Part shown: positions 6,802 through 36,302 of the stretch, piece by piece
Layout: each line of letters begins with the position of its first letter
Numbering within the stretch: position 1 is the first letter of the stretch
Assembly (NCBI GenBank): GCA_966211965.1
Contig: CBIHON010000017.1
Coordinates: forward strand, 3,482 to 67,481
Source: an uncultured Burkholderiales bacterium
Lineage (GTDB): Bacteria; Pseudomonadota; Gammaproteobacteria; Burkholderiales; Burkholderiaceae_D
Reading direction: 5' to 3'
DNA: 64,000 bases
Notes under the pieces: model-generated
The model's database searches: none
What the model saw: only the letters and a program-made list of their open reading frames with translations
What the model was told of the DNA's origin: nothing
Position numbers and translations under genes: made by a program

Positions 6802-6829
6802 TGTTCCGCAATCTTTCCTTTCCGGCGTC

Positions 6830-7861
6830 GTGAGCGCGCGCCCGACTCTCGCCGTCACCTGCGGCGAACCTGCCGGCATCGGCCCCGAGATCGCCCTTAG
6901 AGCGGCTTGGGAATTGCGCGCGCAATTCAATTGCGTGCTGATCGGCGATTCTTCTTTCCTGTCGATCTGCGCCGCGGCGATCGATCCGGCGATCCGGCTG
7001 CTTGCGCTGTCGCTGGAGGCGGTACGCAATAGCGGCTTGCCGGATTTGCCGGCCGACCGGATTGCGGTGGTCGATTGCATGCTGGCGGCGCCGGTGGTGG
7101 CCGGCCGGCTCGATGCGCAAAACGGCCGCTATGTATTGCAGTCGCTGGATATCGCAATCGAAGGTGCGCAGCAAGGCTGGTTCGACGCGATCGTCACCGC
7201 TCCGCTGCAAAAGAGCACCATCAACGATGCCGGCGTACCGTTCACCGGCCATACCGAATACCTTGCTGAAAAGACCGGCACGCCTCAGGTGGTGATGATG
7301 CTGGCCGGCGGTACGCCGCTGCTGCGGGTGGCGTTGGCCACCACCCACCTGCCCTTGAAAGACGTTGCGGCTGCGATCACCTTCGACGGCCTGGCGCGTA
7401 CGCTTGATATTCTGCACGGAGATTTGCAGCGCAAGTTCGGCCTGGCCCGGCCGCGTATCCTGGTCACAGGCTTGAACCCGCATGCGGGCGAGGGCGGTTA
7501 TCTCGGACGAGAAGAAATCGATGTCATCACGCCGGTGCTGCAAGCCGCGCAAGCCAAAGGAATGGCGGTCAACGGCCCGTTTCCGGCCGACACGCTGTTC
7601 CAGCCGAGGCACCTGGAACAAGCCGATTGCGTGCTTGCGATGTACCATGACCAGGGGTTGCCGGTGTTGAAGTTCGCCAGCTTCGGGCATGGCGTCAATA
7701 TCACGCTCGGCTTGCCGATCATACGCACCTCGGTGGACCACGGCACCGCGCTTGATCTGGCGGCACAAGGGTTCGGGCATGCGGACCATGGCAGCATGAT
7801 GGCGGCGATCAAGGTGGCGGCGCAGATGGTTGTGGCGGGCTCCGGTCGGTCAAGCAGTTAA
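6830..7861 (+). CDS. pdxA: 4-hydroxythreonine-4-phosphate dehydrogenase PdxA
   Basis: ORF 6773..7861. It contains [15 protein letters not shown] (compare the E. coli [13 protein letters not shown]) and the HxxEY / GHxDHG metal-site motifs. The GTG at 6830, just after the surA stop, is the likely start; the alternative ATG at 6773 would overlap surA. Confidence 0.85.
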
Positions 7862-22328: not shown

Positions 22329-24821
<2,493 letters not shown>

Positions 24822-24870
24822 GAAGCGGTAGCGGCGTTATGTCGCGTTCCGTATAGGCGCGTTGTGGTCT

Positions 24871-24912
24871 TGGATGGCTGAGGGGAGTTCCCCTCAGCCA
24901 TTTGTTTTTTTG
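24871..24912 (+). terminator. Intrinsic terminator downstream of rpoD, shared with the convergent giant gene
   Basis: ATGGCTGAGGGGA-gtt-TCCCCTCAGCCAT followed by TTGTTTTTTT. Confidence 0.7.
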
Positions 24913-24926
24913 CATGGAGGGACTAT

Positions 24927-27900
24927 CTATTTATGCTTGTCCCCATCCTTGGCGGAAGCCGGCGCGGCAGGCGTCTTCGCTCTCGACACTCGCAAGTGCA
25001 TCAGGCGCTGTTCCAGCTCCTTCACGTTCGCCGACATCTCCCGCACGCTGTCCCAGATGCTGTGGTCCAGCCGCATCTTGTGATTCATCGCACTGATCAT
25101 CGGCAATAGCGTCTGTTCATAGCTATCGGCGAGGCGTGCGATCGCGGTCTGCAGCAATTCTTGCTCCGGCAGATTGACCTGCACATCCGGCGTCAGGCGT
25201 CGGCCGAGAGCGGCAATCTGCTGGCTGATATCCGAGAGCAGATTGGCCACCTTGGTCGCGCCATCGGCATCCGCGCCGCCCTGCTTGCGCAGCCGCACGA
25301 AATCCTGCACCAGTGCCTGCCAGCGGGCTTGCTCCCCGGCGTCCGGCCGGCCCAGCAGATGCGCCAGCTTCAGCAGGTTTTCCTCGGCACCGGTCGTCAG
25401 GGTTTGCGCTTCGCCGCGATAATGGTCGCGCAACAGATCATCCAATTCCTCATCGCGCATGATGGCCGAGACCTTTGGCGTCAGCTTGCTCATGTTGCGG
25501 TAACTGCCCTGCAATTTGAACGGCGGCTCGGTGCGGTAGACATCGTCTTGCGCGGCCGACGCGATATAGGCAAGGTTCACCTCCAGCAGCGCATCGCGCA
25601 CCTTGAACAGGCGTTGCAATACCGCGCAGATTTCGCTTATCTCCTGCTGGCTGTAGGCGTGCTTCAATTCGGTGGCGGGAATCGGCTCGCCCTGCGCCAT
25701 GCGGATCAGGCGATGCACGTCTTGCGGCTCGCGCGCCGCCAGCGGTTGCAAGACCGGATGCGAGACCAGCGCGTTTTCGATATACGACATGGCGAACACT
25801 TCCTCGCGTCCGCTCAGCACGTCGCCCAGGTTGTAGATGTCGGCGCGGTTGGCCAGCATGTCGGGAATCTTGAACATGTCGCCCGACTCGGTATAAGGGT
25901 TGCCGGCCATGACGATCGCGAAGCGCTTGCCGCGCAGATCGTAGGTCCGGCTTTCTCCGCGCCAGACGCCTTCGATGCGCCGCGTGCCGTCGGCCAGCGC
26001 GATGAACTTTTGCAGGAACTCGGGATGCGTATGCTGGATATCGTCCAGGTAGAGCATCACGTTGTTGCCCATCGCCAGACCCAGATTGAGCTTCTCCAGC
26101 TCGGTGCGCGCCGCGCTGTTGGCGGCTTGCGCCGGGTCGAGCGATGTCACGTCGTGACCCAGCACCGGGCAATTGATGCGCACGAAAATCATGCCGAGGC
26201 GGTCGCCCAGGTATTCCATCAGCGTGGTCTTGCCGTATCCCGGCGGCGAGATCAAGAGCAGCATGCCCATCGAATCGGTGCGGCGTTGGTCGCCCGCCGC
26301 GCCGATCTGCTTGGCCAGGTTGTCGCCGACCATCGGCAGATAGACTTCATCGATCAGCTTGTTGCGCACGAAGCTCGACAGCGGCTTGGCCTGAAATTGT
26401 TCCAGCCGCAGGCGCGCTTTTTCTTCCTGTATCAACGTCTGGCGCAATTGCTGCAGTTGCTGCCAGGCCGGTACGGTCACTTGCGTGTGGTGCCGCAGCC
26501 GGCGCATGAAGTCGTTCAGTTGCAGGTTGAGGCCTTGATTGTTCAGCAGCGCGTGTTCGCCCAATAAGCCGGTTATCTGCCCCTGCAGTTCAGCCGCCTG
26601 AATCCGGCGCGGCAGTTGACATAACAGAGCCGCGGCAGTTTCCGGCAGCAGGGTCAAATCCTGCTGCTGTTGTCCGATATAGCCATGCAGCCATTCAGTT
26701 GCGAGTTGCCAGCGTTCGCGCCAGCTTAGGGTTTCGTCCTGCCAGGGTAGTGCGATGCCGTGACGGCTCAGGTGCTGTTGCAGTCCTTGCGCCAGATCCG
26801 AGGCCGCACGGCTCAAGACCCATTCATGCGCCTGGGCGCGGTTTGCGCTGCCGGCTTGGGTGCCGAGTTCTGCCAACAGATACGCTGCGCTTTGCTCCAG
26901 GAGCATCGCCGGCGATTCAGTCACGGTATCCAGCCAGCTTTCGATCGCCAGTTGCTGCTGTGTCAGGAATTTTTGCAGCGCTTGGTGGAGTTGGGCCAGG
27001 ATTTGCTGCCATAGGCGGTCACTGCCAAATTGGCGGCGCATCAGTTCGGCTTGCTCGGCCTGGTGCTTGAGCGTTTGTGCGGACACCTGCAGGCTGGGCG
27101 TTGCACTCAGGTGCTGCCAGTACAGTAGCGCGACTGCGCGTGCCAGAGGGCTGTAACGCAACAAGCCGGCATTTTCATACAACGGCACCAATTGCCGCAG
27201 GATGCAGGCGGCGTCGTGGTCGTGTATCCCTTTCTGATAACCCTCGTGATAACGCGGGGCGGCAAAGCGCCGCACACGTTCATCCAATTGCTGCTTATCG
27301 GACTGGCGCACCGCGTCGAGCAAGGCGGCCCAATTCCAGTCATCGGCTTCCGCTTGCGCGGTCAGCATGATTTTGTAAGCCAGGTATTCGGCGCGATAGA
27401 CCCGCGGACTTTCGGCCAGGTTTTCCTGTCCCCAGTATGGCTTCAAGATTTCCAGGCGCGGCTCTTCCACCGGCGAAAAATAATCGGTACCGGTCAGGTG
27501 ATAGGCCAGCTGCTCCTGGCGCGATACGATGGTCAGGTCGAGCGCTTGCTGGTTGACCGTGAAGGCGTGGCGGCCGAGACGTATCGTGTTGCCGCTTACC
27601 AGTTCGTTGCGGTCGCGCAGCGCGCGCTGGCCCTGGTCGCGCAGATTCTTGAGCTGGCCTGCCAGGTCGTCGGCAGCGACACTATTGCCGAGCTTGCGCA
27701 ATTCTTCGATGCTGGCCTTGAGCTTGTTGAGCAGCGCGTCCGATGCGAAATAGGCTTCGAGCTGGGCCGCTTCAGTCAATTGCGTCAGGCGCTTCGGTAC
27801 CCCGGCCAATATCCGGCGCGACGCATCCATGATGGCCTGCACCCGGCGCGCACGGGCATCGAGCAAGGCCTGCTTGCGGCTTTCCATTGCTTCGTACACC

Positions 27901-30215
27901 GATTCACGCTTGTGGGCGATTTCGGCCAGATAGTCTTCCTGCTCGGCGAAGCGGCCCTCCAGATCTTCCATCTGCGCCAGCAGGCGGGTCAGCAATTCAT
28001 CGCAGCGCTCCGGCGTTTCCGCCTGTTCCAGCGCGCTTTCGACGGATTGCCCGAACAGTTGGAACTGTGCCGCGAATTCGGCCGCCGACTCGCCTTGCGA
28101 CAATTGCTTGCGGCGCTGGCGTGCTTCGGCGCGCAGCTTGTTGACTTCGGCATAGATGCCGGAAATGGTGTTGAGGATGCGGGTGCGCAAGGTGGTGTCG
28201 CCGACCGCCAGCGTGCCGAGCAATTCGGTTAGTCCATCCAGGTTGTGCGCGCTGCGGTCCAGTGCTTCATGCAGCGGCGCCAATTCCGCTGTCGAGTGCA
28301 GATTGGGCAGTTGCGCGCGTTGCCTGTTCAGATCCGCATTGATTTTGGCGAAAGCATCATCCTGCGCGAGAAATTGTACGGTGCGCTCGGCGACGCGGCT
28401 TTCCTCGGTGCCGAGTTCCGCATCCAGCCCGTCCAGGCGCGCCACGTCCATGTAGCGCTGTTCCTTCAAGCTGGCCAGCCGTCCGCGTGCAAGGCGGAGC
28501 TGGTCCAGCGCTTCGATGAAGTCGGTCGGCGATTGCCACAGTCGGCTGGCGGTTTCGGTCAGCAATTGGCGCTGCGCCTGTTCGGTCTGCTGCAGCGTAC
28601 GTTGCGCTTCGCGCTGGACCGCCGCCATCTTATCGAATTCGTCCAGCGTTGCGCTCGCCACCTCGATCATGCCGCGCACTTCAGCGCCGGCCTGCTGCGC
28701 TTCCTCGGCTCCCAGCCAGTAGTAGGCATCGGCCACGCGGCGGCATTGCTTGATCAGGGTTTCATAGACGAAGCGGGTCGGTAGCTGGTCCCGGCTTGCT
28801 TCGCCCTGTTCACGCACCAGTTTCGCGATCGAATACAACTCGGACAAACCGCGCACCAATTCGCGATTGCCGATCTTGCCGAAAAAAGTCTGGCGCGGCG
28901 CTTGCTGCGCTGCATGCTCATCGCTCAGGAAAGGGGTTTGCCACAGCTGCATCGCGTGGTTGCGTGTCGGTTCGTCGTTCTCGGCGGTAAACAGCAGCAT
29001 GCGGCCATCGTCGAAGCGGGCGTAACCGTGCGCCACCAGCGGCTGTTCCAGCGTCTTGTTGATCAGGTTGTAAGTCAACAGCACGTACACGCCGTGCTCG
29101 ACGCCGTAGAATACATACAGCACGTCTTCGCCGTTCGGGGCCAGCACCCGGCGCTTGAATTGGAGGCCGGCCGGCAGGTCGGCAAACAGCTTGTATTCGC
29201 CGCTTTGCAGGATATAACCATCGGGGAAAACGATGCCGTGGTCTTCCGGCAATTGCACGCAAGAGGCGCCGATCGCATCGACCCGCGTCACCTGCCGTGT
29301 GCGGCGATTGAAGACCAAGTGACGCACCTGGGTTTCCCGATAAGGTTTGATGCGCAGCAGAATCAGTTCTCCTACTGCGGCATAGGCGATGTCTGCATCG
29401 TTCAACGATTGATTGCGATCCTCCACCGGCTCGCTATAGATGCCGAGACCGGTTTCGGTATTGTTCTCGATTTTGACGGTCAGGTCGCCGCCGATGGTTT
29501 CGACGAACAGGGTGTCGAGCACGTTGATATGCGGATGCTTGCCGAGCACATGCTGCTCGCGCGTGGTCGGCGTCCATTCGAAGTCATGCGCCGGCGGCAG
29601 GGCGATATCGCGTTCGCCGCGATTATCGATATAGCTGACTTCGCCGCTGTCCTTGAGCTGCCAGCGGAACACCCGCACATCGCTGATGCGTTCGCCGATT
29701 TTGAAGGCGGCCAGAAGCTTGCCTTGATGCACGCGCAACTGCACCAGCTGCGCGTTGCGATAATAGTTGTAGAGTTCCTTGAATTCGGCGACGAAACGCG
29801 TATCGTCCAAAAAGGTCTGTTCCAGCTTGAGCGCTTCAAGCTCGGCTTGCTCGCCGTCCTGGCGCAAGCGATACAAGCCGAACACGTCCGCGACCCTGGT
29901 TTCCTGACGCAAGCCGATGAAGACGTTGTAGCCGAACACCAGCACATCGCCGACCAGTACCAGGTCGCGTGCGACGCAATTGTTTTCGGTACGGGCACGG
30001 GTGCGGGCGCGCAACACCATGTCTTCGCGACCGAACTCGGCCAGCCGCGCCTTATTCAGGATGCCGGCCTTTTCCAGCAGCGTCTTGCCTTGCGCGCTCA
30101 AGCGCTTGCGCAGCAGATCGAAACTGCTGGAATGGGCCACTGCTTGCGCGACTTTGTTGTCGCCGGCGTCCGGGTTTTCGGCTTGGCGGGCGTCTTCGGT
30201 TTGGGCGTCGCTCAT
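24927..30215 (-). CDS. Giant (~1760 aa) uncharacterised protein with a beta-rich N-terminal domain, a long helical/coiled-coil central region and a single C-terminal AAA+ ATPase domain
   Basis: ORF 24927..30284. The likely start is the ATG at 30215 (MSDAQTED), 5 bp after the zf-TFIIB stop. Walker A is ISPPGYGKTTLMEY, Walker B VMLYLDDIQ and sensor-1 FAIVMAGNPY, all near residues 1270-1400. The central region is Q/A/E/L-rich (residues ~500-1000). No other P-loop was found. Confidence 0.8.
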   Translation of the reverse strand: MSDAQTEDARQAENPDAGDNKVAQAVAHSSSFDLLRKRLSAQGKTLLEKAGILNKARLAEFGREDMVLRARTRARTENNCVARDLVLVGDVLVFGYNVFIGLRQETRVADVFGLYRLRQDGEQAELEALKLEQTFLDDTRFVAEFKELYNYYRNAQLVQLRVHQGKLLAAFKIGERISDVRVFRWQLKDSGEVSYIDNRGERDIALPPAHDFEWTPTTREQHVLGKHPHINVLDTLFVETIGGDLTVKIENNTETGLGIYSEPVEDRNQSLNDADIAYAAVGELILLRIKPYRETQVRHLVFNRRTRQVTRVDAIGASCVQLPEDHGIVFPDGYILQSGEYKLFADLPAGLQFKRRVLAPNGEDVLYVFYGVEHGVYVLLTYNLINKTLEQPLVAHGYARFDDGRMLLFTAENDEPTRNHAMQLWQTPFLSDEHAAQQAPRQTFFGKIGNRELVRGLSELYSIAKLVREQGEASRDQLPTRFVYETLIKQCRRVADAYYWLGAEEAQQAGAEVRGMIEVASATLDEFDKMAAVQREAQRTLQQTEQAQRQLLTETASRLWQSPTDFIEALDQLRLARGRLASLKEQRYMDVARLDGLDAELGTEESRVAERTVQFLAQDDAFAKINADLNRQRAQLPNLHSTAELAPLHEALDRSAHNLDGLTELLGTLAVGDTTLRTRILNTISGIYAEVNKLRAEARQRRKQLSQGESAAEFAAQFQLFGQSVESALEQAETPERCDELLTRLLAQMEDLEGRFAEQEDYLAEIAHKRESVYEAMESRKQALLDARARRVQAIMDASRRILAGVPKRLTQLTEAAQLEAYFASDALLNKLKASIEELRKLGNSVAADDLAGQLKNLRDQGQRALRDRNELVSGNTIRLGRHAFTVNQQALDLTIVSRQEQLAYHLTGTDYFSPVEEPRLEILKPYWGQENLAESPRVYRAEYLAYKIMLTAQAEADDWNWAALLDAVRQSDKQQLDERVRRFAAPRYHEGYQKGIHDHDAACILRQLVPLYENAGLLRYSPLARAVALLYWQHLSATPSLQVSAQTLKHQAEQAELMRRQFGSDRLWQQILAQLHQALQKFLTQQQLAIESWLDTVTESPAMLLEQSAAYLLAELGTQAGSANRAQAHEWVLSRAASDLAQGLQQHLSRHGIALPWQDETLSWRERWQLATEWLHGYIGQQQQDLTLLPETAAALLCQLPRRIQAAELQGQITGLLGEHALLNNQGLNLQLNDFMRRLRHHTQVTVPAWQQLQQLRQTLIQEEKARLRLEQFQAKPLSSFVRNKLIDEVYLPMVGDNLAKQIGAAGDQRRTDSMGMLLLISPPGYGKTTLMEYLGDRLGMIFVRINCPVLGHDVTSLDPAQAANSAARTELEKLNLGLAMGNNVMLYLDDIQHTHPEFLQKFIALADGTRRIEGVWRGESRTYDLRGKRFAIVMAGNPYTESGDMFKIPDMLANRADIYNLGDVLSGREEVFAMSYIENALVSHPVLQPLAAREPQDVHRLIRMAQGEPIPATELKHAYSQQEISEICAVLQRLFKVRDALLEVNLAYIASAAQDDVYRTEPPFKLQGSYRNMSKLTPKVSAIMRDEELDDLLRDHYRGEAQTLTTGAEENLLKLAHLLGRPDAGEQARWQALVQDFVRLRKQGGADADGATKVANLLSDISQQIAALGRRLTPDVQVNLPEQELLQTAIARLADSYEQTLLPMISAMNHKMRLDHSIWDSVREMSANVKELEQRLMHLRVSRAKTPAAPASAKDGDKHK

Positions 30216-30220
30216 TGGTT

Positions 30221-30754
30221 TCAGTCTGCCTTGGCGTTCAGGAAGGCGATCATTTCGGCGCTGTTCGGTTGCGACTGCAGCCACGTGCGCAGGTGCACCA
30301 GCTCATCGTAGGCGGCGTCGCCGAAACGCGCGCGGTGGGCTTTTTCCATCCGTTCGCGCGAGGCCGCTTCCTGCAGGTCGCGCTGCCAGCGCTCCGACAC
30401 GATGGCATCCAACTGATCATGCAAACCCAGCGCAAGCAAGGCTTCCCACTCGCCGCGATCGAGCCAGACGCCATGCGCCGCTGCGCTGAAATCGAGCCGC
30501 AGCGGGATCACGTTGCAGACCTTCACGCGCGCCATCAGGCGCTTGGTCTTCGGACACATGCGGGCGGCATCGTCGACTACTTCGATTTCACCGGCATACT
30601 CCAGCGCCGCGATTTCCGGCATGGTCTTGCGCCAGGTCCGGTATGCATCCAGATCGACCCAGACGCCGCTGCAATCGTTGCAGCGCTCGACCGGCAATCC
30701 GGCTTCGAGCTTGACCGCAGCGAAGTTTTTATTACCGCAGGCTGGACACAACAT
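30221..30754 (-). CDS. Tandem zf-TFIIB-type zinc-ribbon protein
   Basis: ORF 30221..30805. The internal start MLCPACGNKNF...CNDCSGVWVDLDAY gives repeat 1 (CPxCG...CxxCxGVWxDxxE). Repeat 2 is degenerate (CPKTKRLM...HGVWLDRGEWEAL), followed by a helical tail. Confidence 0.65.
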   Translation of the reverse strand: MLCPACGNKNFAAVKLEAGLPVERCNDCSGVWVDLDAYRTWRKTMPEIAALEYAGEIEVVDDAARMCPKTKRLMARVKVCNVIPLRLDFSAAAHGVWLDRGEWEALLALGLHDQLDAIVSERWQRDLQEAASRERMEKAHRARFGDAAYDELVHLRTWLQSQPNSAEMIAFLNAKAD

Positions 30755-30795
30755 GTTTGCTCTCTTTCTTGGATTTCGTGGATGGCTTTTTTTAT

Positions 30796-30889
30796 GGGCG
30801 GACACGGCTTGATCGTGCTCGCGTGCAAGCTTCGATCAGGGCGCATGTTTTTAAGGTCACGCATGGGCACGATCAAGCCGTGCCCGCCC
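30796..30889. repeat. Intra-operon inverted repeat (23-bp arms, one mismatch, ~48-nt spacer) between the flotillin and zinc-ribbon genes
   Basis: GGGCGGACACGGCTTGATCGTGC (30796-30818) pairs with GCACGATCAAGCCGTGCCCGCCC (30867-30889). Confidence 0.6.
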
Positions 30890-30902
30890 TGCGTCCTTGC
30901 AA

Positions 30903-33098
30903 TTAATTAGGATTCTTCGGCGTCTCGAACCCCGGCTTGAAGCTCGCCAGCAATCCGTGCAGCGCGCTCTGCTGCTGCGCCGTTCCTTCGCGTGCCACCT
31001 TTGCCAACAGCGCCGCCACGGTCAGATTCTGCAACTCGCCCGAAGACCCGCCCAGCGCCCCGATCATGCCGCGGATATCGTTCACCATGTCGCGCTCGCC
31101 GCTCAAATGGTCCTTCAGGCCGATTTGCAAGGTCTTGCTCTTGTCGATCGTCGCATCGATTCCTTTGCCAAGCGAAAGGGCATTGACGAAGCGCTCGAAA
31201 TAATCGCCTTCGCCGCCGACGATATCGATCTTGGCATTTTGCAGGGCTTTGCCCAGCACTTCGGCCTGGTCCTTGGCGATATGGGTTTGCGCATCGATGC
31301 CCTTGATGATCTGCTGGTTGCCCATCTCCAGCTGCATACGGAATTCCTCGTGCGCGCGGGTGTCGGCACTCATCGCCGACATCGCTTCGAACTTCTGCGC
31401 CAAGCCCTTCGATTCGGCTTCGTAACGCGCCTGGATCACATGCGCTTCGGCATCGCCGTGCGTGGCCGTGGCGTTGGCGTCGGCTGCCTTGACCGCAGCC
31501 GCTGCCAGTCCCATCTGCTCGGTTCCCTGTGCTTCGGCCTGCATGTGCAGGCGCAGCGCTTCGGCCTCGGCCGCGCCTTGCTTGGCGGTGGCTTCAGCGC
31601 CGGCGATGCGCACTTGCGCTTCGGCCATGCCCAGTTGTTCCTTGCCTTTGGCTTCGGCTTCCATTTGCATGCGCGTCGATTCCGCCTGCGCCGCGCCCTG
31701 TTTCAGGATCGCTTCGGATGCGGCGATCTTCACCTTCGCATCGGCCATGCCTGGGGCGGCAAGTTCCGCTTCACGGCCTTCGGCTTCGCGCTTTTTCGCT
31801 TCGGCGGCTTTTTCCGCGACTTTCAGGCGTGCTTCGGCCAGCGTCAGTTCCTGGGCGGATTTGTGCTTGGCTGAGCGCTCTTCCGCTTCGGCGGCCTTGA
31901 CGGTCAACACCATTTTTTCTTCAGCGGCGGCTTCGGCGGTGATCACCACGGATTTTTTCTGACGGTCGGCTTCGGCCACCACGCGCACTTCCTTGATTGC
32001 TTCTTCCTGCTCCGCCACCGTGCGTTCGACCACGATGCGCTCGCGGATCACGTCGGCGATCGCTTTTTTCTGGACTTCGATTGCTCTTTCCTTGTCGATG
32101 TTCTGCAGCGCGACTTCCTTCTCGCGATCGACGATTTCCAACTGCCGGGCACGCGTCACGCGTTCTTCCTCGATCGCCACCGCGCGCTTGCGGTTGTTTT
32201 CCGCCACTTCTTTTTCGCGCGTGGTGTTTTCCTGTTGCACCATCACCAGCTGCTCGGCCTGCAAGCGGGCCAGTTCGGCTTTGGCGTGTTCTTCCGCTTG
32301 CACTCTTTGCGTCTCGGCTTGTTCGCGTGCACGCACCGAACTCACTTCACGGCTCTGGCGCGACTCCGCATCGGCTTGCTGGCGCTCCAGCTCCAGGATC
32401 GCTTCCCGCGTTTCCACGTTCTTTTTCTTGATGCGCATTTCTTCATCGCGCTTCAGTTCATTGGTGCGGATGTTCTCAATCGCGGTCAGTTCGGTGATTT
32501 TCTTGATGCCCTGGGCGTCGAGAATATTGTGGCCGTCGAGCTTGTCCAGCGGCGTCTGCTCGATGTAATCGATCGCCGCGTCTTCCAGCACGTAGCCCGA
32601 CAAGTCGTCGCCGATCTGGCGGATGATATTGTCGCGGAAGCGGTCGCGCGCCTGGTACAGTTCGACGAAATCCATCGATTTGCCGACGGTTTTCAGCGCC
32701 TCTGCAAACTTGGCGGAGAACAGGCTTTCCAGTGTTTCCTGGTTCGACGCGCGTTCGCAGCCGACCGCCTGCGCTACCTTCAGCACGTCTTCCGTAGTCT
32801 TGTTCACACGCAGGAAGAAGGTGACCTTGATGTCGGCCCGGATATTGTCCTGGCAGATCAGTCCGTCCTTGCCGAGACGGGCGATCTCGATGGTCTTGAG
32901 CGAGATTTCCATCAGTTCCATCTTGTGGATGATGGGATAGACCATGCCGCCGGTGAAAGTGACGTCGGGGTCGGCGCGCAGGGTGTTGATGATCATCGCG
33001 TGTCCTTGTTCCACCTTGTGGTAGAACTTGGCAAACATCGCCAATGCGCCCAATAGCATAACGGTGCCAATGCCGATTGCGATCAACATGATGTCCAT
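30903..33098 (-). CDS. Flotillin / SPFH (band-7) family protein, YqiK-like, with an extended Ala/Glu/Lys-rich repeat region
   Basis: 731 aa with an N-terminal TM segment, an SPFH domain (LKTIEIARLG...IRADIKVTFFLRV) and a long EA-rich coiled coil carrying about 37-aa tandem repeats (AKQGAAEAE...). Confidence 0.85.
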   Translation of the reverse strand: MDIMLIAIGIGTVMLLGALAMFAKFYHKVEQGHAMIINTLRADPDVTFTGGMVYPIIHKMELMEISLKTIEIARLGKDGLICQDNIRADIKVTFFLRVNKTTEDVLKVAQAVGCERASNQETLESLFSAKFAEALKTVGKSMDFVELYQARDRFRDNIIRQIGDDLSGYVLEDAAIDYIEQTPLDKLDGHNILDAQGIKKITELTAIENIRTNELKRDEEMRIKKKNVETREAILELERQQADAESRQSREVSSVRAREQAETQRVQAEEHAKAELARLQAEQLVMVQQENTTREKEVAENNRKRAVAIEEERVTRARQLEIVDREKEVALQNIDKERAIEVQKKAIADVIRERIVVERTVAEQEEAIKEVRVVAEADRQKKSVVITAEAAAEEKMVLTVKAAEAEERSAKHKSAQELTLAEARLKVAEKAAEAKKREAEGREAELAAPGMADAKVKIAASEAILKQGAAQAESTRMQMEAEAKGKEQLGMAEAQVRIAGAEATAKQGAAEAEALRLHMQAEAQGTEQMGLAAAAVKAADANATATHGDAEAHVIQARYEAESKGLAQKFEAMSAMSADTRAHEEFRMQLEMGNQQIIKGIDAQTHIAKDQAEVLGKALQNAKIDIVGGEGDYFERFVNALSLGKGIDATIDKSKTLQIGLKDHLSGERDMVNDIRGMIGALGGSSGELQNLTVAALLAKVAREGTAQQQSALHGLLASFKPGFETPKNPN
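31500..31760. repeat. Intragenic tandem DNA repeats (~110-bp period) encoding the flotillin EA-rich repeats
   Basis: Reiterated gcttcggcc...gcgcttcggc...gcgccgcgcc blocks correspond to the repeated MAEAQVRIAGAEATAKQGAAEAE peptide units. Confidence 0.5.
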
Positions 33099-33131
33099 GG
33101 ATTTCCTTGTCTGTCTTGATGTAAAGGCGTG

Positions 33132-33806
33132 TTAGAGAGCGGGAGGTAGAGCTTGCACTTCGTACTGCTGGCTGGTCTCGTCATAGCTCAGAATGACGGC
33201 CAGGGAATTTTTTGTAAGGGTGTTCGGCGTTCTGGCCCAGACCCGGATGTTCAAACCGGCGCCGCGGTCTTCCACTTCGGCGCGGCCGAATTTTTCATCG
33301 ACGGTTTGCGTGACGATCTTGCAGCGCAAGCCGACCAGGCTGCTGTTGTTGCGCGCATGATGTTTGACGAACAAACCGCGCATCGGCCTGATCAATAGCG
33401 CGGACAGCGGAATCGAGAGCGCGCCGGAGGCCAGCAACGCGCCGGTGCCGAACAGCATTTGCAGCGAGGTCGTGGGGACATAGGCGAGGAAATATTCATG
33501 CAGCAGGGCGGTTGCCAGCCAGGTAAAAAATACCAGCAAACTGGCGACGATCGAAAACGGCACGCCGCCCAAACCCATCGCGACCAGATAGCCGGCCAGC
33601 GTATGGACGTCGGTCCCATCGTGATGCACCTCCACATGATGATGATGCCCGGCATCCCAATGCCAGCCATCGCCGCCGTCGATTTCAAGGTTGTCGCCGA
33701 GATCGACCAGGCCGACAATCGACAACAGCCAGTAAATCAACAGGATGCCGAGCAAGACGCTCGGGACTACCGTGGGGAAACTGCTCAGAATCTGCCATGT
33801 GGACAT
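33132..33806 (-). CDS. NfeD/YqiJ-like inner-membrane protein with a C-terminal OB-fold, partner of the flotillin
   Basis: 224 aa with an N-terminal TM, an unusual His-rich stretch (WHWDAGHHHHVEVHHDG), further TM helices and a C-terminal soluble beta domain (VGLRCKIVTQTVDEKFGRAEV). It sits immediately upstream of the flotillin, as in E. coli yqiJ-yqiK. Confidence 0.7.
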   Translation of the reverse strand: MSTWQILSSFPTVVPSVLLGILLIYWLLSIVGLVDLGDNLEIDGGDGWHWDAGHHHHVEVHHDGTDVHTLAGYLVAMGLGGVPFSIVASLLVFFTWLATALLHEYFLAYVPTTSLQMLFGTGALLASGALSIPLSALLIRPMRGLFVKHHARNNSSLVGLRCKIVTQTVDEKFGRAEVEDRGAGLNIRVWARTPNTLTKNSLAVILSYDETSQQYEVQALPPAL

Positions 33807-33858
33807 CTATTTATTCCTCGCCATATTTTGTTTTGTGGTCGTTCGCTGGCGGCTTTTT

Positions 33859-34209
33859 TTACTTATTGTGCGGCGCTTGTTTCTTTGCAAAGTCTATCAG
33901 TTTCTTGTGTAAAGCTTCCTTGATTCCCCGTTTGTCTTCGGCATCAATGCCGAAACGCTCCGCCAGCAGCGCATAATCAGCATCGCTCAGGCTCACCGTC
34001 AAGCGCGGCCGTACCGGCTTGCTGGTGCAAGGCAAACCGAGAATCTTGCGGATCTGGTCCGAGGGCGAGATTTGGTTTTCGAACGCAGCATAACGTACTG
34101 CATCGATCACCTGCTTCTCGACGTCGAAGGCAACCTGTATAGCGCGCAAGGCGGCGTCTGAGCTGGACCATCGGGATGAACTGCGCACCATGGATTCTGT
34201 CTTTCTCAA
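33859..34209 (-). CDS. Small hypothetical protein, translationally coupled to the PspA-like gene
   Basis: 116-aa ORF whose start overlaps the PspA-like stop (ATGA at 34206-34209). No family was recognised. Confidence 0.45.
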   Translation of the reverse strand: MRKTESMVRSSSRWSSSDAALRAIQVAFDVEKQVIDAVRYAAFENQISPSDQIRKILGLPCTSKPVRPRLTVSLSDADYALLAERFGIDAEDKRGIKEALHKKLIDFAKKQAPHNK

Positions 34210-34922
34210 CTCGCGCTTTTTTCATCGGGCGCTGCATGCAGGCGTGCTTGCAGCCGCGCCATCACATCGGCCTTGCGGTTCACGTTTTCGCCGATGCCGG
34301 CGGCGGCCAGCTTGTTTTCGAGCGCCTTGTTGCCGAACTCGCCATCCAGCACTTCGGCCGCCTGCATGCGGTCCGCCATATCCTGATGGCGCTGCTTGAT
34401 GCGCTCCAGCGATTCCTTGGCGCTCATCAATTTGGATCCGCTCGCGCCCATGCTTTGCGAAATCGTCGCGGTCGCCTTGTACACGCTCTCGGTGGTCTTG
34501 GCCATGGTCAGTTGCCGTTCATGTTCGCGCAGGGTGGCCTCGGCATTGCGGATCAATTCTTTCAAGCGCAGGATGTGCGCCGTGAATTCGGCGCGCGCCG
34601 CCGTCTGTTCGGCAAGCGCGGTTTCCAGATCGGCCACCTTGGCCGCGACTTCCTCGGCCAAGGCGGTCTGGTTCTTTTGCAGGGCTTGCATGGCCATGTC
34701 TTCGAATCTGCGTATTTCCGCCTGCAAGCGTTCGATCTCGCGGCCGGCCTGCATTTCCTTCGCCATGACCGCGGTCAAGTCTTGCTTGGCGTTGGCCACA
34801 TGGGCCTTGGCTTCGACGATTTCCTGCTCGTAGATGCCGGCGGCATTGCTATCGACTACGCTCTGGCCGATCTCGCGCAGGTTACCGCGCAACATCGTCA
34901 AAATTTTGGAAAAGACAGCCAT
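34206..34922 (-). CDS. PspA/IM30 (Vipp1, ESCRT-III-like) family protein, YjfJ-like
   Basis: 238 aa beginning MAVFSKILTMLRGNLREIG..., with a fully helical, heptad-rich PspA_IM30-type sequence. Confidence 0.8.
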   Translation of the reverse strand: MAVFSKILTMLRGNLREIGQSVVDSNAAGIYEQEIVEAKAHVANAKQDLTAVMAKEMQAGREIERLQAEIRRFEDMAMQALQKNQTALAEEVAAKVADLETALAEQTAARAEFTAHILRLKELIRNAEATLREHERQLTMAKTTESVYKATATISQSMGASGSKLMSAKESLERIKQRHQDMADRMQAAEVLDGEFGNKALENKLAAAGIGENVNRKADVMARLQARLHAAPDEKSAS

Positions 34923-34932
34923 GATGCTCTCC

Positions 34933-35361
34933 TTATTTCAGAAATTCAGTGAACACTTCCAAGGCTTCGATGGCATTGTCGGCTACCATCGCCACATCGG
35001 TCGCGATATCTTCGACCCGCGAATCGTGGGCCAGCGAGCCATAAATCACATAGTGCCGGCCAATGCGGCCGAAGTCGGAAAGAGGAATGGAAATATTCAA
35101 GTCGATCATCGCCTCCAGCATCTCGGCACGGCGTTCCGGTTTGATTTCATCTTCGGTCCAGAGATAGCAGATGCAGAGGACCTGCGTCGGCGAGATCGTC
35201 ACGAATACCGGCAGTTCTTCCTGGCCTTCGATACTGATGCGCATCACGGGGACGCCGCCCGGTTCGGTCGCGGGCAGCAGGCTGCTGCTGACGCCGATCG
35301 ATCCCAGGCGCTGGGACAACGCTGTTTCAATCCCAAGCAATTGGCGCATTGTTTCTTCCAT
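34933..35361 (-). CDS. First gene of the operon; possible YjfI-like (DUF2170) protein
   Basis: ORF 34933..35421. The internal ATG at 35361 is preceded by the perfect RBS AAGGAGGAACC-ATG. Family assignment is tentative and rests on adjacency to the YjfJ-like PspA homologue. Confidence 0.5.
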   Translation of the reverse strand: MEETMRQLLGIETALSQRLGSIGVSSSLLPATEPGGVPVMRISIEGQEELPVFVTISPTQVLCICYLWTEDEIKPERRAEMLEAMIDLNISIPLSDFGRIGRHYVIYGSLAHDSRVEDIATDVAMVADNAIEALEVFTEFLK

Positions 35362-35416
35362 GGTTCCTCCTTGCGTGGCGCTGCTGGTTTTTGTATTCGT
35401 TGAGGTAGTCGGCGAA

Positions 35417-35457
35417 GACATATTATGTCAAAGTATAAGTGTCCGACATAAAATGTC
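35417..35457. promoter_or_regulatory. Promoter of the seven-gene operon with two 13-bp operator palindromes (GACATATTATGTC and GACATAAAATGTC)
   Basis: Read on the minus strand the sequence is TTGACA-N16-TATACT. The -35 element lies inside palindrome 2 (35445-35457) and palindrome 1 (35417-35429) covers the predicted transcription start. The palindromes are about 28 bp apart centre to centre. Confidence 0.55.
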
Positions 35458-35630
35458 AAGGTGTTGAAAAAGTGCAATTCATGCCTTGTTGCGGCAATCA
35501 AATAAAAATGATCTGGTTCAAAGCATGAGATTTTTTGGATTCCCCGTTTTATCATCACACGCTTCTTTCCATTTCCCATCGAATGCGGCAGTGCGCCGAC
35601 ATCATCCTTGTCATCAATTGAAAGCCGCGG

Positions 35631-36074
35631 ATGCGCCTGTGGTCAATCCATCCCAAATATCTGGACCCGACGGGCTTGGTCGCCTTGTGGCGTGAGAGTC
35701 TCCTGGCGCAGAAGGTCTTGCTTGGCCAGACCAGGGGATATAAGTTCCATCCTCAATTGCAGAGGTTTCATGCATGCCCCGACCCTGTTCTGACGATCGG
35801 CTGCTACCTGAATGAAATATTGAAAGAGGCGGATCGGCGCGGCTACCGGTTTGACAGGTCGAAAGTCGTACGCTCCGGGGCCTGCGGGAAATTGAAAGTC
35901 CACAGAGGACAGGTCGATTATGAGTGGGAATTGATACTCGGAAGGTTGGAGCGCAGGGCGCCAAACGTGTATGCCATGCATAAAATGCTTGTCAGTCCCA
36001 GGCCGCATCCGTTGTTTCAAATCGTGCCTGGCGGAATTGAAGACTGGGAGCGCATTCAAGCGCGATACGCTTGA
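35631..36074 (+). CDS. Pyrimidine-dimer DNA glycosylase family protein (Pyr_excise-like)
   Basis: 147 aa beginning MRLWSIHPKYLDPTGLVALWRE, the hallmark N-terminus of this family. Confidence 0.8.
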   Translation: MRLWSIHPKYLDPTGLVALWRESLLAQKVLLGQTRGYKFHPQLQRFHACPDPVLTIGCYLNEILKEADRRGYRFDRSKVVRSGACGKLKVHRGQVDYEWELILGRLERRAPNVYAMHKMLVSPRPHPLFQIVPGGIEDWERIQARYA

Positions 36075-36107
36075 GGTTGATGGCGGCTCGGCATTTTGGG
36101 CGACCGG

Positions 36108-36302
36108 TTATTTTTTCGACGGCTGTTGCGCCACCTGCGCTCGAATGCTCTCAAGTTCGGCATCGCAAGCCAATTCAATTTCCTGATCGCCTTTTACCAA
36201 GGCGAATACCTGGATCGCATGGATCAGGTTGCTTTTGTAATGCAATTCCTTGACGGTGTCGTAGCCGAGGGCGTCAAGTACAAGTTGGAGCCGTGCATGC
36301 AT
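36108..36302 (-). CDS. Possible small hypothetical protein (64 aa)
   Basis: ORF in a locally lower-GC intergenic stretch with no recognisable family; it could be spurious. Confidence 0.25.
   Translation of the reverse strand: MHARLQLVLDALGYDTVKELHYKSNLIHAIQVFALVKGDQEIELACDAELESIRAQVAQQPSKK

Follow-up and report, generated by a model that had tools for sequence, protein, structure and literature searches.

A bac-type operon of PspA, NfeD, flotillin and giant AAA+ ATPase genes with a probable regulator of its own in an uncultured Burkholderiales bacterium

In Pseudomonas aeruginosa, the genes PA3729-PA3732 were named as a biofilm-associated cluster (Macé et al. 2008, PMC2587700), and reverse-transcription PCR has placed six genes, bacA to bacF, on a single transcript (Wallart et al. 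2024, PMC10948618). The latter work also found that BacB-BacF levels rise 6- to 13-fold when BacA is lost, and determined the structure of BacA, which is CesT-like. A 2026 study identified BacC as a short NfeD protein and BacD as the SPFH protein PaFlo3, and the phenotypes reported for bac concern biofilm, swarming and virulence. The operon class, together with abbreviated flotillin-YqiJ-ATPase operons, was described by Ravi et al. 2024 (mSystems, PMC11237479). Here, we compare these systems with a seven-gene operon found in a window of 64,000 nt (the whole stretch analysed; GCA_966211965.1, contig CBIHON010000017.1, positions 3,482-67,481) from an uncultured Burkholderiales bacterium (Burkholderiaceae_D). 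The operon class is known, yet to our knowledge its components beyond BacA and BacB are unstudied, and the giant AAA+ ATPase has never been purified.

Judged by sequence, the gene content and order of this operon match P. aeruginosa bacABCDE and the Ravi et al. class, all five defining components of which are in the window, with two lineage-restricted insertions and no bacF. The system is thus already described, and a sequence-only reading that had called it undescribed was wrong: the class is in Ravi et al. 2024 (PMC11237479), which also proposed the ESCRT-III/Vps4 analogy that the reading put forward, and its bacABCDEF member is in PMC10948618. The operon belongs to a known, functionally unsolved class, within which the idea that the ATPase serves PspA as a Vps4 counterpart is possible but not favoured. 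We judge it reasonably probable that the locus is the Burkholderiales (type A) form of a bac-type envelope-stress operon, self-repressed and built on an NfeD-flotillin-ATPase core to which PspA is accessory.

Gene content and order of the operon

The seven genes of the operon, in gene order, are as follows.

34933-35361, minus strand: yjfI/bacA-like gene, DUF2170, CesT/Tir-type chaperone fold, short form of 142 aa (Pfam, PDB, alignment)
34206-34922, minus strand: PspA/IM30 (ESCRT-III superfamily), YjfJ subfamily, 238 aa (Pfam PspA_IM30, E 4e-33)
33859-34191, minus strand: small conserved gene, 110 aa, ribbon-helix-helix (RHH)-like (conserved family, weak RHH matches, co-occurrence with a palindrome)
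33132-33806, minus strand: YqiJ-like short NfeD membrane protein, 224 aa (hhalign; several hydrophobic segments)
30903-33098, minus strand: YqiK-like flotillin (SPFH), 731 aa (hhalign; N-terminal transmembrane helix, long Ala/Glu-rich coiled coil)
30221-30754, minus strand: soluble zinc-ribbon protein, 177 aa (Pfam Zn_ribbon_TFIIB, E 2e-12)
24927-30215, minus strand: giant ATPase, 1762 aa, ATG start at 30215 (DUF3686, DUF7902, AAA)

These are seven consecutive minus-strand open reading frames (ORFs; 24927-35421 in the window's ORF list), in the order that the sequence-only reading had given, and the names it gave them are upheld by Pfam, hhalign and BLASTP assignments. Its description of the junctions as 0-35-bp gaps or ATGA-type overlaps does not hold. 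With homology-supported start codons, the intergenic gaps are, in gene order, 10, 14, 52, 33, 148 and 5 nt; two junctions (52 and 148 nt) exceed that range, and there is no ATGA overlap. The yjfI start, set by alignment of relatives, is most likely at 35361, with a GGAGG Shine-Dalgarno sequence, rather than at 35421.

Relatives were sought by alignment of the giant protein, with one genome per species, and at least 567 species encode one. The best 80 of these loci were fetched, and their ORFs were sorted by iterated hidden Markov model searches seeded with the window proteins. The same block recurs across dozens of genomes in this survey, so the arrangement is not a product of chance. Its complete seven-gene form is present in eight Oxalobacteraceae and Comamonadaceae/Sphaerotilaceae loci. 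Two of the window proteins, looked up by exact match, have no record, and among named relatives Janthinobacterium and Massilia stand closest.

The YjfI-like protein matches Pfam DUF2170 (E 1e-24), E. coli YjfI (BLASTP, E 7e-8) and the crystal structure of P. aeruginosa BacA (PDB 8q8o, E 6e-5). It scores 41.6 bits on the NCBIfam BacA equivalog NF050185, below the 300-bit cutoff, and is without the N-terminal module of ~60 aa carried by longer BacA. The order yjfI-pspA-nfeD-flot-giant is shared by seven Pseudomonas-group loci (Pseudomonas, Phytopseudomonas, Aquipseudomonas), in which the first gene scores 303-350 bits, above the cutoff. Over its whole length, the window PspA can be aligned with E. 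coli YjfJ (27% identity, E 2e-16).

Three marks of a bac-type operon are found in the window locus. The DUF2170/CesT-like gene lies directly upstream of the YjfJ-type pspA across the 10-nt gap; a short YqiJ/YuaF-type NfeD is followed by a flotillin composed of a transmembrane helix, SPFH domain and coiled coil; and the giant protein, with N-terminal DUF3686 and a coiled coil, lies downstream of the flotillin. The order is that of bacABCDEF (PA3732-PA3727 / PA14_16140-16200), in which BacA is a DUF2170 protein, BacB is PspA-like, BacC is NfeD, BacD is the flotillin and BacE is the giant protein. The last assignment follows from the published bacD/bacE junction primers: one of the peptides they encode, EGDFFN, is from the flotillin C-terminus, and the other, resembling TENNCIA, is a conserved motif at residue ~69 of the giant. 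Both bac and the window locus lack PspF, PspB and PspC, and among the window proteins there is no Pfam match to PspB, PspC or Sigma54_activat. The locus does not fit a classical Psp system (PspF-PspABC), since no enhancer-binding protein and no canonical sigma-54 promoter were detected either.

The window locus differs from bac in its short YjfI, in a separate RHH-like gene after pspA, in a zinc-ribbon gene before the ATPase gene, and in having no PLD/HKD-like BacF. Pseudomonas-group loci carry a 229-aa gene after the giant gene, with no counterpart in the window (locus L018, 15185-15874; L027, 15432-16121; L030, 15751-16440). It is probably bacF, since DFDGLD is the peptide encoded by a published junction primer and the N-termini of these proteins read MDF..LD; that it is of PLD/HKD type is an assumption taken over from Ravi et al.

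The NfeD-flotillin-ATPase core

The window flotillin and NfeD-like proteins have no Pfam match of their own, and PDB profile searches with the two families gave no match; their identity therefore rests on hhalign against E. coli YqiK and YqiJ. The profile of the 731-aa family matches YqiK with a probability of 99.9 (E 5.6e-33, 30% identity over 409 columns), and that of the 224-aa family matches YqiJ with a probability of 90.5 (E 1.4e-6). The transmembrane helix of the flotillin lies at residues 3-21, and 5 of 30 members of its family reach Pfam Band_7.

The giant protein opens with DUF3686 at residues 46-499 (Pfam E 8e-199), a region to which Ravi et al. 2024 (PMC11237479) ascribe a beta-propeller fold. 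A helical/coiled-coil region with DUF7902 at residues 620-704 follows, then a single AAA+ module at ~1290-1480 (Pfam AAA_5/AAA match 1319-1442) and a helical C-terminus; no transmembrane helix is predicted. The Walker A motif, GYGKTT, is canonical, and the Walker B motif, LYLDD, is unchanged in 15 aligned homologues and carries Asp at the usual position of the catalytic Glu. Sequence matches to solved structures are at P-loop level only (RuvB, Rix7, midasin, Rpt3 and p97). The ATPase domain of the giant is predicted to have a generic AAA+ fold, with no specific likeness to Vps4 by sequence or fold.

Across the related loci, the ATPase follows the flotillin and NfeD more closely than it follows PspA. 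The flotillin gene directly precedes the ATPase region in 75/75 loci with enough upstream sequence and NfeD is present in 70/71, and the YjfI-PspA dyad is found in only 40/67. Co-conservation with the giant thus holds for the flotillin and NfeD and only in part for YjfI-PspA. The nfeD-flotillin-giant trio stands alone in Actinobacteria, Myxococcota, Xenorhabdus, Stenotrophomonas, Pseudoalteromonas and others. From these frequencies, the ATPase is primarily a predicted partner of the flotillin and NfeD, with PspA an add-on.

The same counts bear on a different account, in which the giant AAA+ protein would be a functional analogue of Vps4, dedicated to the co-encoded PspA polymer and disassembling or remodelling it. 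PspA and the ATPase share an operon here and in the 40 loci with the dyad, and Ravi et al. 2024 (PMC11237479) made the same suggestion. The role is also vacant, in that bacteria appear in a 2025 review to be without a Vps4-like remodeller for PspA, and no such partner is known to it. However, in 27 of the 67 loci the ATPase occurs with the flotillin and NfeD and without PspA within 10 kb, whereas no locus has it without the flotillin. Marinobacter and one Cellvibrionaceae genome keep yjfI-pspA-small as a separate divergent unit facing nfeD-flot-giant, E. coli has yjfIJ without such an ATPase, and a Pfam scan finds neither an MIT nor a Vps4_C domain in the giant. Because the ATPase follows the flotillin and NfeD and PspA is often absent, a PspA-dedicated ATPase is rather unlikely. 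The proposal of the sequence-only reading, a giant ATPase that remodels PspA, therefore stands as to a membrane-associated PspA/flotillin/NfeD/AAA+ operon of stress type, and its dedication to PspA is not favoured.

An anti-phage or abortive-infection system, with the membrane remodelling proteins as effectors, is very improbable. In its favour, PspA was discovered as a phage-shock protein, defence systems often include large STAND/AAA+ proteins that sense through beta-propellers, and mobile or toxin-antitoxin-like insertions lie between the flotillin and ATPase genes in L038 and L039. Yet PADLOC gives only coiled-coil-level matches of PspA to BrxC/JetC/LmuB (E > 1e-4), and on this negative result we rejected the system. 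The locus lies between rpoD and housekeeping genes, the system is spread vertically over at least 567 species and keeps its gene order, unlike patchy defence islands, and the phenotypes reported in P. aeruginosa are biofilm, swarming and virulence.

That the giant is a DNA repair ATPase, its operon position being incidental or reflecting membrane-tethered DNA transactions, is more remote still and was rejected as a matter of labels: the Pfam entry for DUF3686 reads 'ATPase involved in DNA repair', NCBI names the homologues 'DNA repair ATPase', RuvB is matched weakly at Walker A level and a pyrimidine-dimer glycosylase gene lies divergently upstream, but the RuvB matches span only ~45-70 residues around the P-loop (E 0.01-0.05), the glycosylase is a neighbour in 0/80 related loci, the invariant neighbours are membrane proteins, and none of the papers in the literature library searched mentions DUF3686, PF12458 or DUF7902. 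The giant is thus no well-characterised enzyme, 'DNA repair ATPase' being a database label alone.

The zinc-ribbon protein encoded just before the giant has one intact TFIIB-type ribbon, a degenerate second ribbon and a helical C-terminal part. The sequence-only reading had called it a double zf-TFIIB protein; the family assignment is borne out, and the second ribbon keeps 1 of its 4 cysteines here. In the alignment, three of the four are lost in Oxalobacteraceae, the window included, and the ribbon is intact in Comamonadaceae/Sphaerotilaceae homologues. Among the 80 loci, a zinc-ribbon gene between the flotillin and ATPase genes occurs in Burkholderiales only. The same slot holds a conserved ORF of ~80 aa (MSEPRDYLEMSFRSIQCFANDGRLD...) in some Pseudomonas-group and Lysobacter loci (L021, 9638-9925; L023, 9598-9837; L030, 9584-9826; L052, 9567-9827). 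Other insertions between the two genes comprise several unrelated ORFs in L038 (6564-9956), where two small ORFs near the ATPase start may, by eye only, be a nucleotidyltransferase/HEPN-type pair, and two near-identical ORFs of ~310 aa in L039 (7932-9965).

The 148-nt spacer between the flotillin and zinc-ribbon genes carries a further element.

30796-30889, minus strand: intercistronic RNA hairpin with a 23-bp stem (minimum free energy -62.3 kcal/mol, z -6.5)

This hairpin is not followed by a U-tract. Its arms occur nowhere else in the window, which rules out a dispersed repeat element, and strongly folding spacers after the flotillin gene are common in related loci. It may act as an attenuator, or govern processing or stability, and in this way set the ratio of scaffold to ATPase, with the downstream ATPase lower.

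Promoter, operators and two putative regulators

Upstream of yjfI lie a promoter and two putative operators.

35432-35459, minus strand: sigma-70-type promoter TTGACA-N16-TATACT (11/12 consensus matches)
35445-35457, no strand: putative operator 1, palindrome GACAT-N3-ATGTC over the -35 hexamer (position conserved in relatives)
35417-35429, no strand: putative operator 2, palindrome GACAT-N3-ATGTC just past the -10 hexamer, at the expected transcription start

The promoter is the best promoter-like site within 24500-36200. The 13-bp palindrome has two copies in the 64-kb window, both at this promoter, where 0.07 would be expected, and the promoter-operator block is the sole invariant stretch upstream of yjfI in five otherwise diverged Oxalobacteraceae loci. 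Across 1.74 Mb of locus DNA from relatives, 27 copies occur in 16 loci, and 26 of the 27 lie directly upstream of yjfI. Its presence follows that of the small gene, which is present in type A loci and absent from type B loci (among L017-L079). Among loci that have the small gene, 15/16 carry the exact palindrome, and among yjfI-pspA loci that lack the gene 0/24 do (Fisher p 4e-10); in the sixteenth small-gene locus, a symmetric variant takes its position.

The small protein has no Pfam match in the window scan, and 15 locus-encoded homologues are recognised at 32-78% identity. Its family comprises 214 clusters in a 90% database and 184 representatives at 50% identity among 1.84 billion proteins, and its gene always follows pspA, one Methylomonas locus excepted. 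Five RHH Pfam families weakly match the same N-terminal region (residues ~14-58) of different members, all below threshold (RHH_1 best, 19.8 bits against a cutoff of 20.5, then RHH_5, RHH_9, RHH_10 and FitA-like), and the C-terminal half shows a second beta-alpha-alpha pattern. GACAT-N3-ATGTC lies at the promoter only and tracks the small gene, as would be expected of the cognate palindrome of an RHH factor, and the small protein is probably the operon's own operator-binding autoregulator or repressor. Since the palindrome is present where this RHH-like ORF is, the operon encodes a probable transcription factor. The earlier statement that it has neither a transcription factor nor an enhancer-binding protein is thus correct for the latter, Sigma54_activat being unmatched, and probably mistaken for the former.

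The small-protein domain also occurs at the C-terminus of longer proteins of 225-582 aa. In ~30 representatives of 400-580 aa (P0330, P0337, P0356 and others), it comes last, after a conserved N-terminal domain of ~200 aa and a long Pro/Ala/Glu/Lys-rich linker; a scan of eight such long proteins and two other long matches gave no Pfam match.

In the 24 loci that lack the small gene, BacA is longer (204-276 aa in the gene calls, 206 aa for the NCBIfam model) and has a strongly conserved N-terminal module of ~45 aa (KSSAHYQRLFRQRLREQGLVKKEVWILPE...). This module gives weak, recurrent matches to the MazE-like antitoxin family PF11455 (6/7 sequences, best E 9e-4). Type B promoters carry the palindrome T(T/C)ACATGT(A/G)A (TTACATGTAA), usually in pairs that flank a TTGAC -35 element. 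Of the 36 copies in the 1.74 Mb, 34 lie at the bacA start, in 19/24 type B loci, and there is none in small-gene loci or in the window. Long BacA with paired palindromes is seen, for example, in L018 (5560-5730), L028 and L074. The BacA N-terminal module is therewith an alternative putative DNA-binding module, and across loci it and the small protein are mutually exclusive. An origin of the two regulators by fission or fusion was rejected, as hhalign sees no similarity between them (probability 0.1). The pairing of module and palindrome is in keeping with the published finding that BacA acts negatively on bac expression. The crystallised BacA chain of 146 residues ('139 amino-acids' in the published text) suggests that the structure is without the N-terminal module.

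These arrangements also set the window apart from bac in its control elements. The putative window operator is GACAT-N3-ATGTC rather than TTACATGTAA; the window promoter is of sigma-70 type, whereas a sigma-54 site was proposed for P. aeruginosa bacA. Sigma-54 control of the window operon was rejected, as the sole GG/GC candidate upstream of yjfI is spaced 8 rather than 10, and no related locus has a convincing TGGCAC-N5-TTGC site. The main text of Ravi et al. (PMC11237479) gives no RHH-like gene, zinc-ribbon gene or operators for the operon class; there, RHH appears for the spermidine-synthase class only, and zinc ribbons for B. subtilis YdjG/YdjL. The two regulator/operator pairs and the Burkholderiales zinc-ribbon gene thus appear to be new elements.

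One further locus, L056 (Pseudoalteromonas), has nfeD-flot-giant only; yjfI, pspA and the small gene are all missing within 10 kb. It still carries TTGACATAATATGTC at 6817-6833, ~300 nt upstream of nfeD, which suggests trans control by a regulator encoded elsewhere.

Beyond the operon, the following features define its downstream end.

22329-24821, plus strand: rpoD, converging on the giant gene
24871-24904, no strand: 15-bp-stem hairpin between the giant gene and rpoD, terminator-like, with a T-run on the plus strand

The sequence scan of the operon region shows one strong promoter and one terminal hairpin, and the latter is likely the end of both the giant-gene and rpoD transcripts. With convergent rpoD on one side and the divergent glycosylase gene upstream on the other, there is no island setting. 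The rpoD ORF as listed has 830 aa from a GTG codon; its region 1.1 begins only at residue 220, so the start codon is probably over-extended.

A model of the operon and its place among known systems

The account that we favour, a self-repressed bac-type envelope-stress operon, would work as follows. Transcription would start from one strong sigma-70 promoter whose -35 hexamer and start site each lie under a GACAT-N3-ATGTC operator, and the small RHH-like protein would bind both operators and repress the operon until an envelope signal arrives. The YqiJ-like NfeD and YqiK-like flotillin would form a scaffold or cage at the inner membrane, on its cytoplasmic side, with the giant ATPase as obligate partner, using ATP to assemble, remodel or clear the scaffold or its clients, and the zinc-ribbon protein as an adaptor between scaffold and ATPase. 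PspA and its CesT-like chaperone YjfI would form an accessory module for ESCRT-III-type membrane sealing at the flotillin platform. Recruitment of PspA to this platform is proposed by analogy with SPFH-PspA recruitment in Bacillus subtilis.

Several points weigh against this account. The operon model for this organism is read from DNA sequence alone, and the partnership of flotillin and ATPase is known from gene linkage rather than physical contact. The RHH fold of the small protein is drawn from sub-threshold sequence matches; its AlphaFold2 monomer, a model of moderate confidence (predicted local distance difference test score 74.5), has helices and an unpaired extended segment with no beta-ribbon, and Foldseek finds no significant match for this model. 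The link between small gene and palindrome is a correlation among phylogenetically related loci, yet it extends across Beta- and Gammaproteobacteria. With Asp in place of the Walker B catalytic Glu, hydrolysis by the giant may be slow or regulatory. The 148-nt spacer, with its hairpin of -62 kcal/mol, could split or attenuate the transcript. Finally, distant architectures fall outside the best 80 loci on which the counts are based.

A bolder extension, which we hold only tentatively and think doubtful, is that the trio is a phylum-spanning, ATP-driven assembler and dismantler of flotillin cages, acting also on ESCRT-III-type polymers in those proteobacteria where YjfI-PspA has been added, and placed under two interchangeable operon-specific repressor/operator pairs. 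If so, the trio would be the missing energy-consuming remodeller of bacterial membrane scaffolds. There would be two unreported pairs, a stand-alone tandem RHH-like protein with GACAT-N3-ATGTC or a MazE-like BacA N-domain with TTACATGTAA, and the published structure and annotation of P. aeruginosa BacA would be without its DNA-binding domain. An ATPase that tracks the flotillin and NfeD, not PspA, shifts the remodeller question to flotillin-cage dynamics. The regulator/operator pairs, in turn, would be handles for inducing the system and offer a mechanism for the derepression of bac on loss of BacA in P. aeruginosa.

Beyond bac, the parts of the window operon have counterparts in several better-known systems. 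E. coli yjfIJ(KLMC) and yqiJK encode proteins homologous to the window YjfI, YjfJ, YqiJ and YqiK. The two pairs lie 1.2 Mb apart, which agrees with their earlier description as separate modules; yjfIJ runs into polyamine-related genes, and the giant ATPase is absent. In B. subtilis, pspA-ydjGHI likewise co-encodes PspA with an SPFH protein and a two-zinc-ribbon protein, and the SPFH protein YdjI is needed to bring PspA to the membrane (PMC8581546). In contrast to the window operon, this system, which is controlled by sigma-W, lacks an AAA+ ATPase, NfeD and a DUF2170 chaperone, and its YdjG is anchored in the membrane; YdjG and the window zinc-ribbon protein are likened by description alone.

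The ESCRT-III/Vps4 systems of archaea and eukaryotes likewise co-encode an ESCRT-III-superfamily protein with an AAA+ ATPase. Compared with Vps4, however, the giant is ~4x larger, has DUF3686 and a coiled coil in place of the MIT domain, and is linked to the flotillin, not to PspA. The closest analogy to the invariant trio, and an analogy only, is provided by HflK/C-FtsH and other pairs of an SPFH cage with an AAA+ protein. Relative to FtsH, the giant has no detected protease domain or transmembrane helix, and the homology between them is limited to the AAA+ fold.

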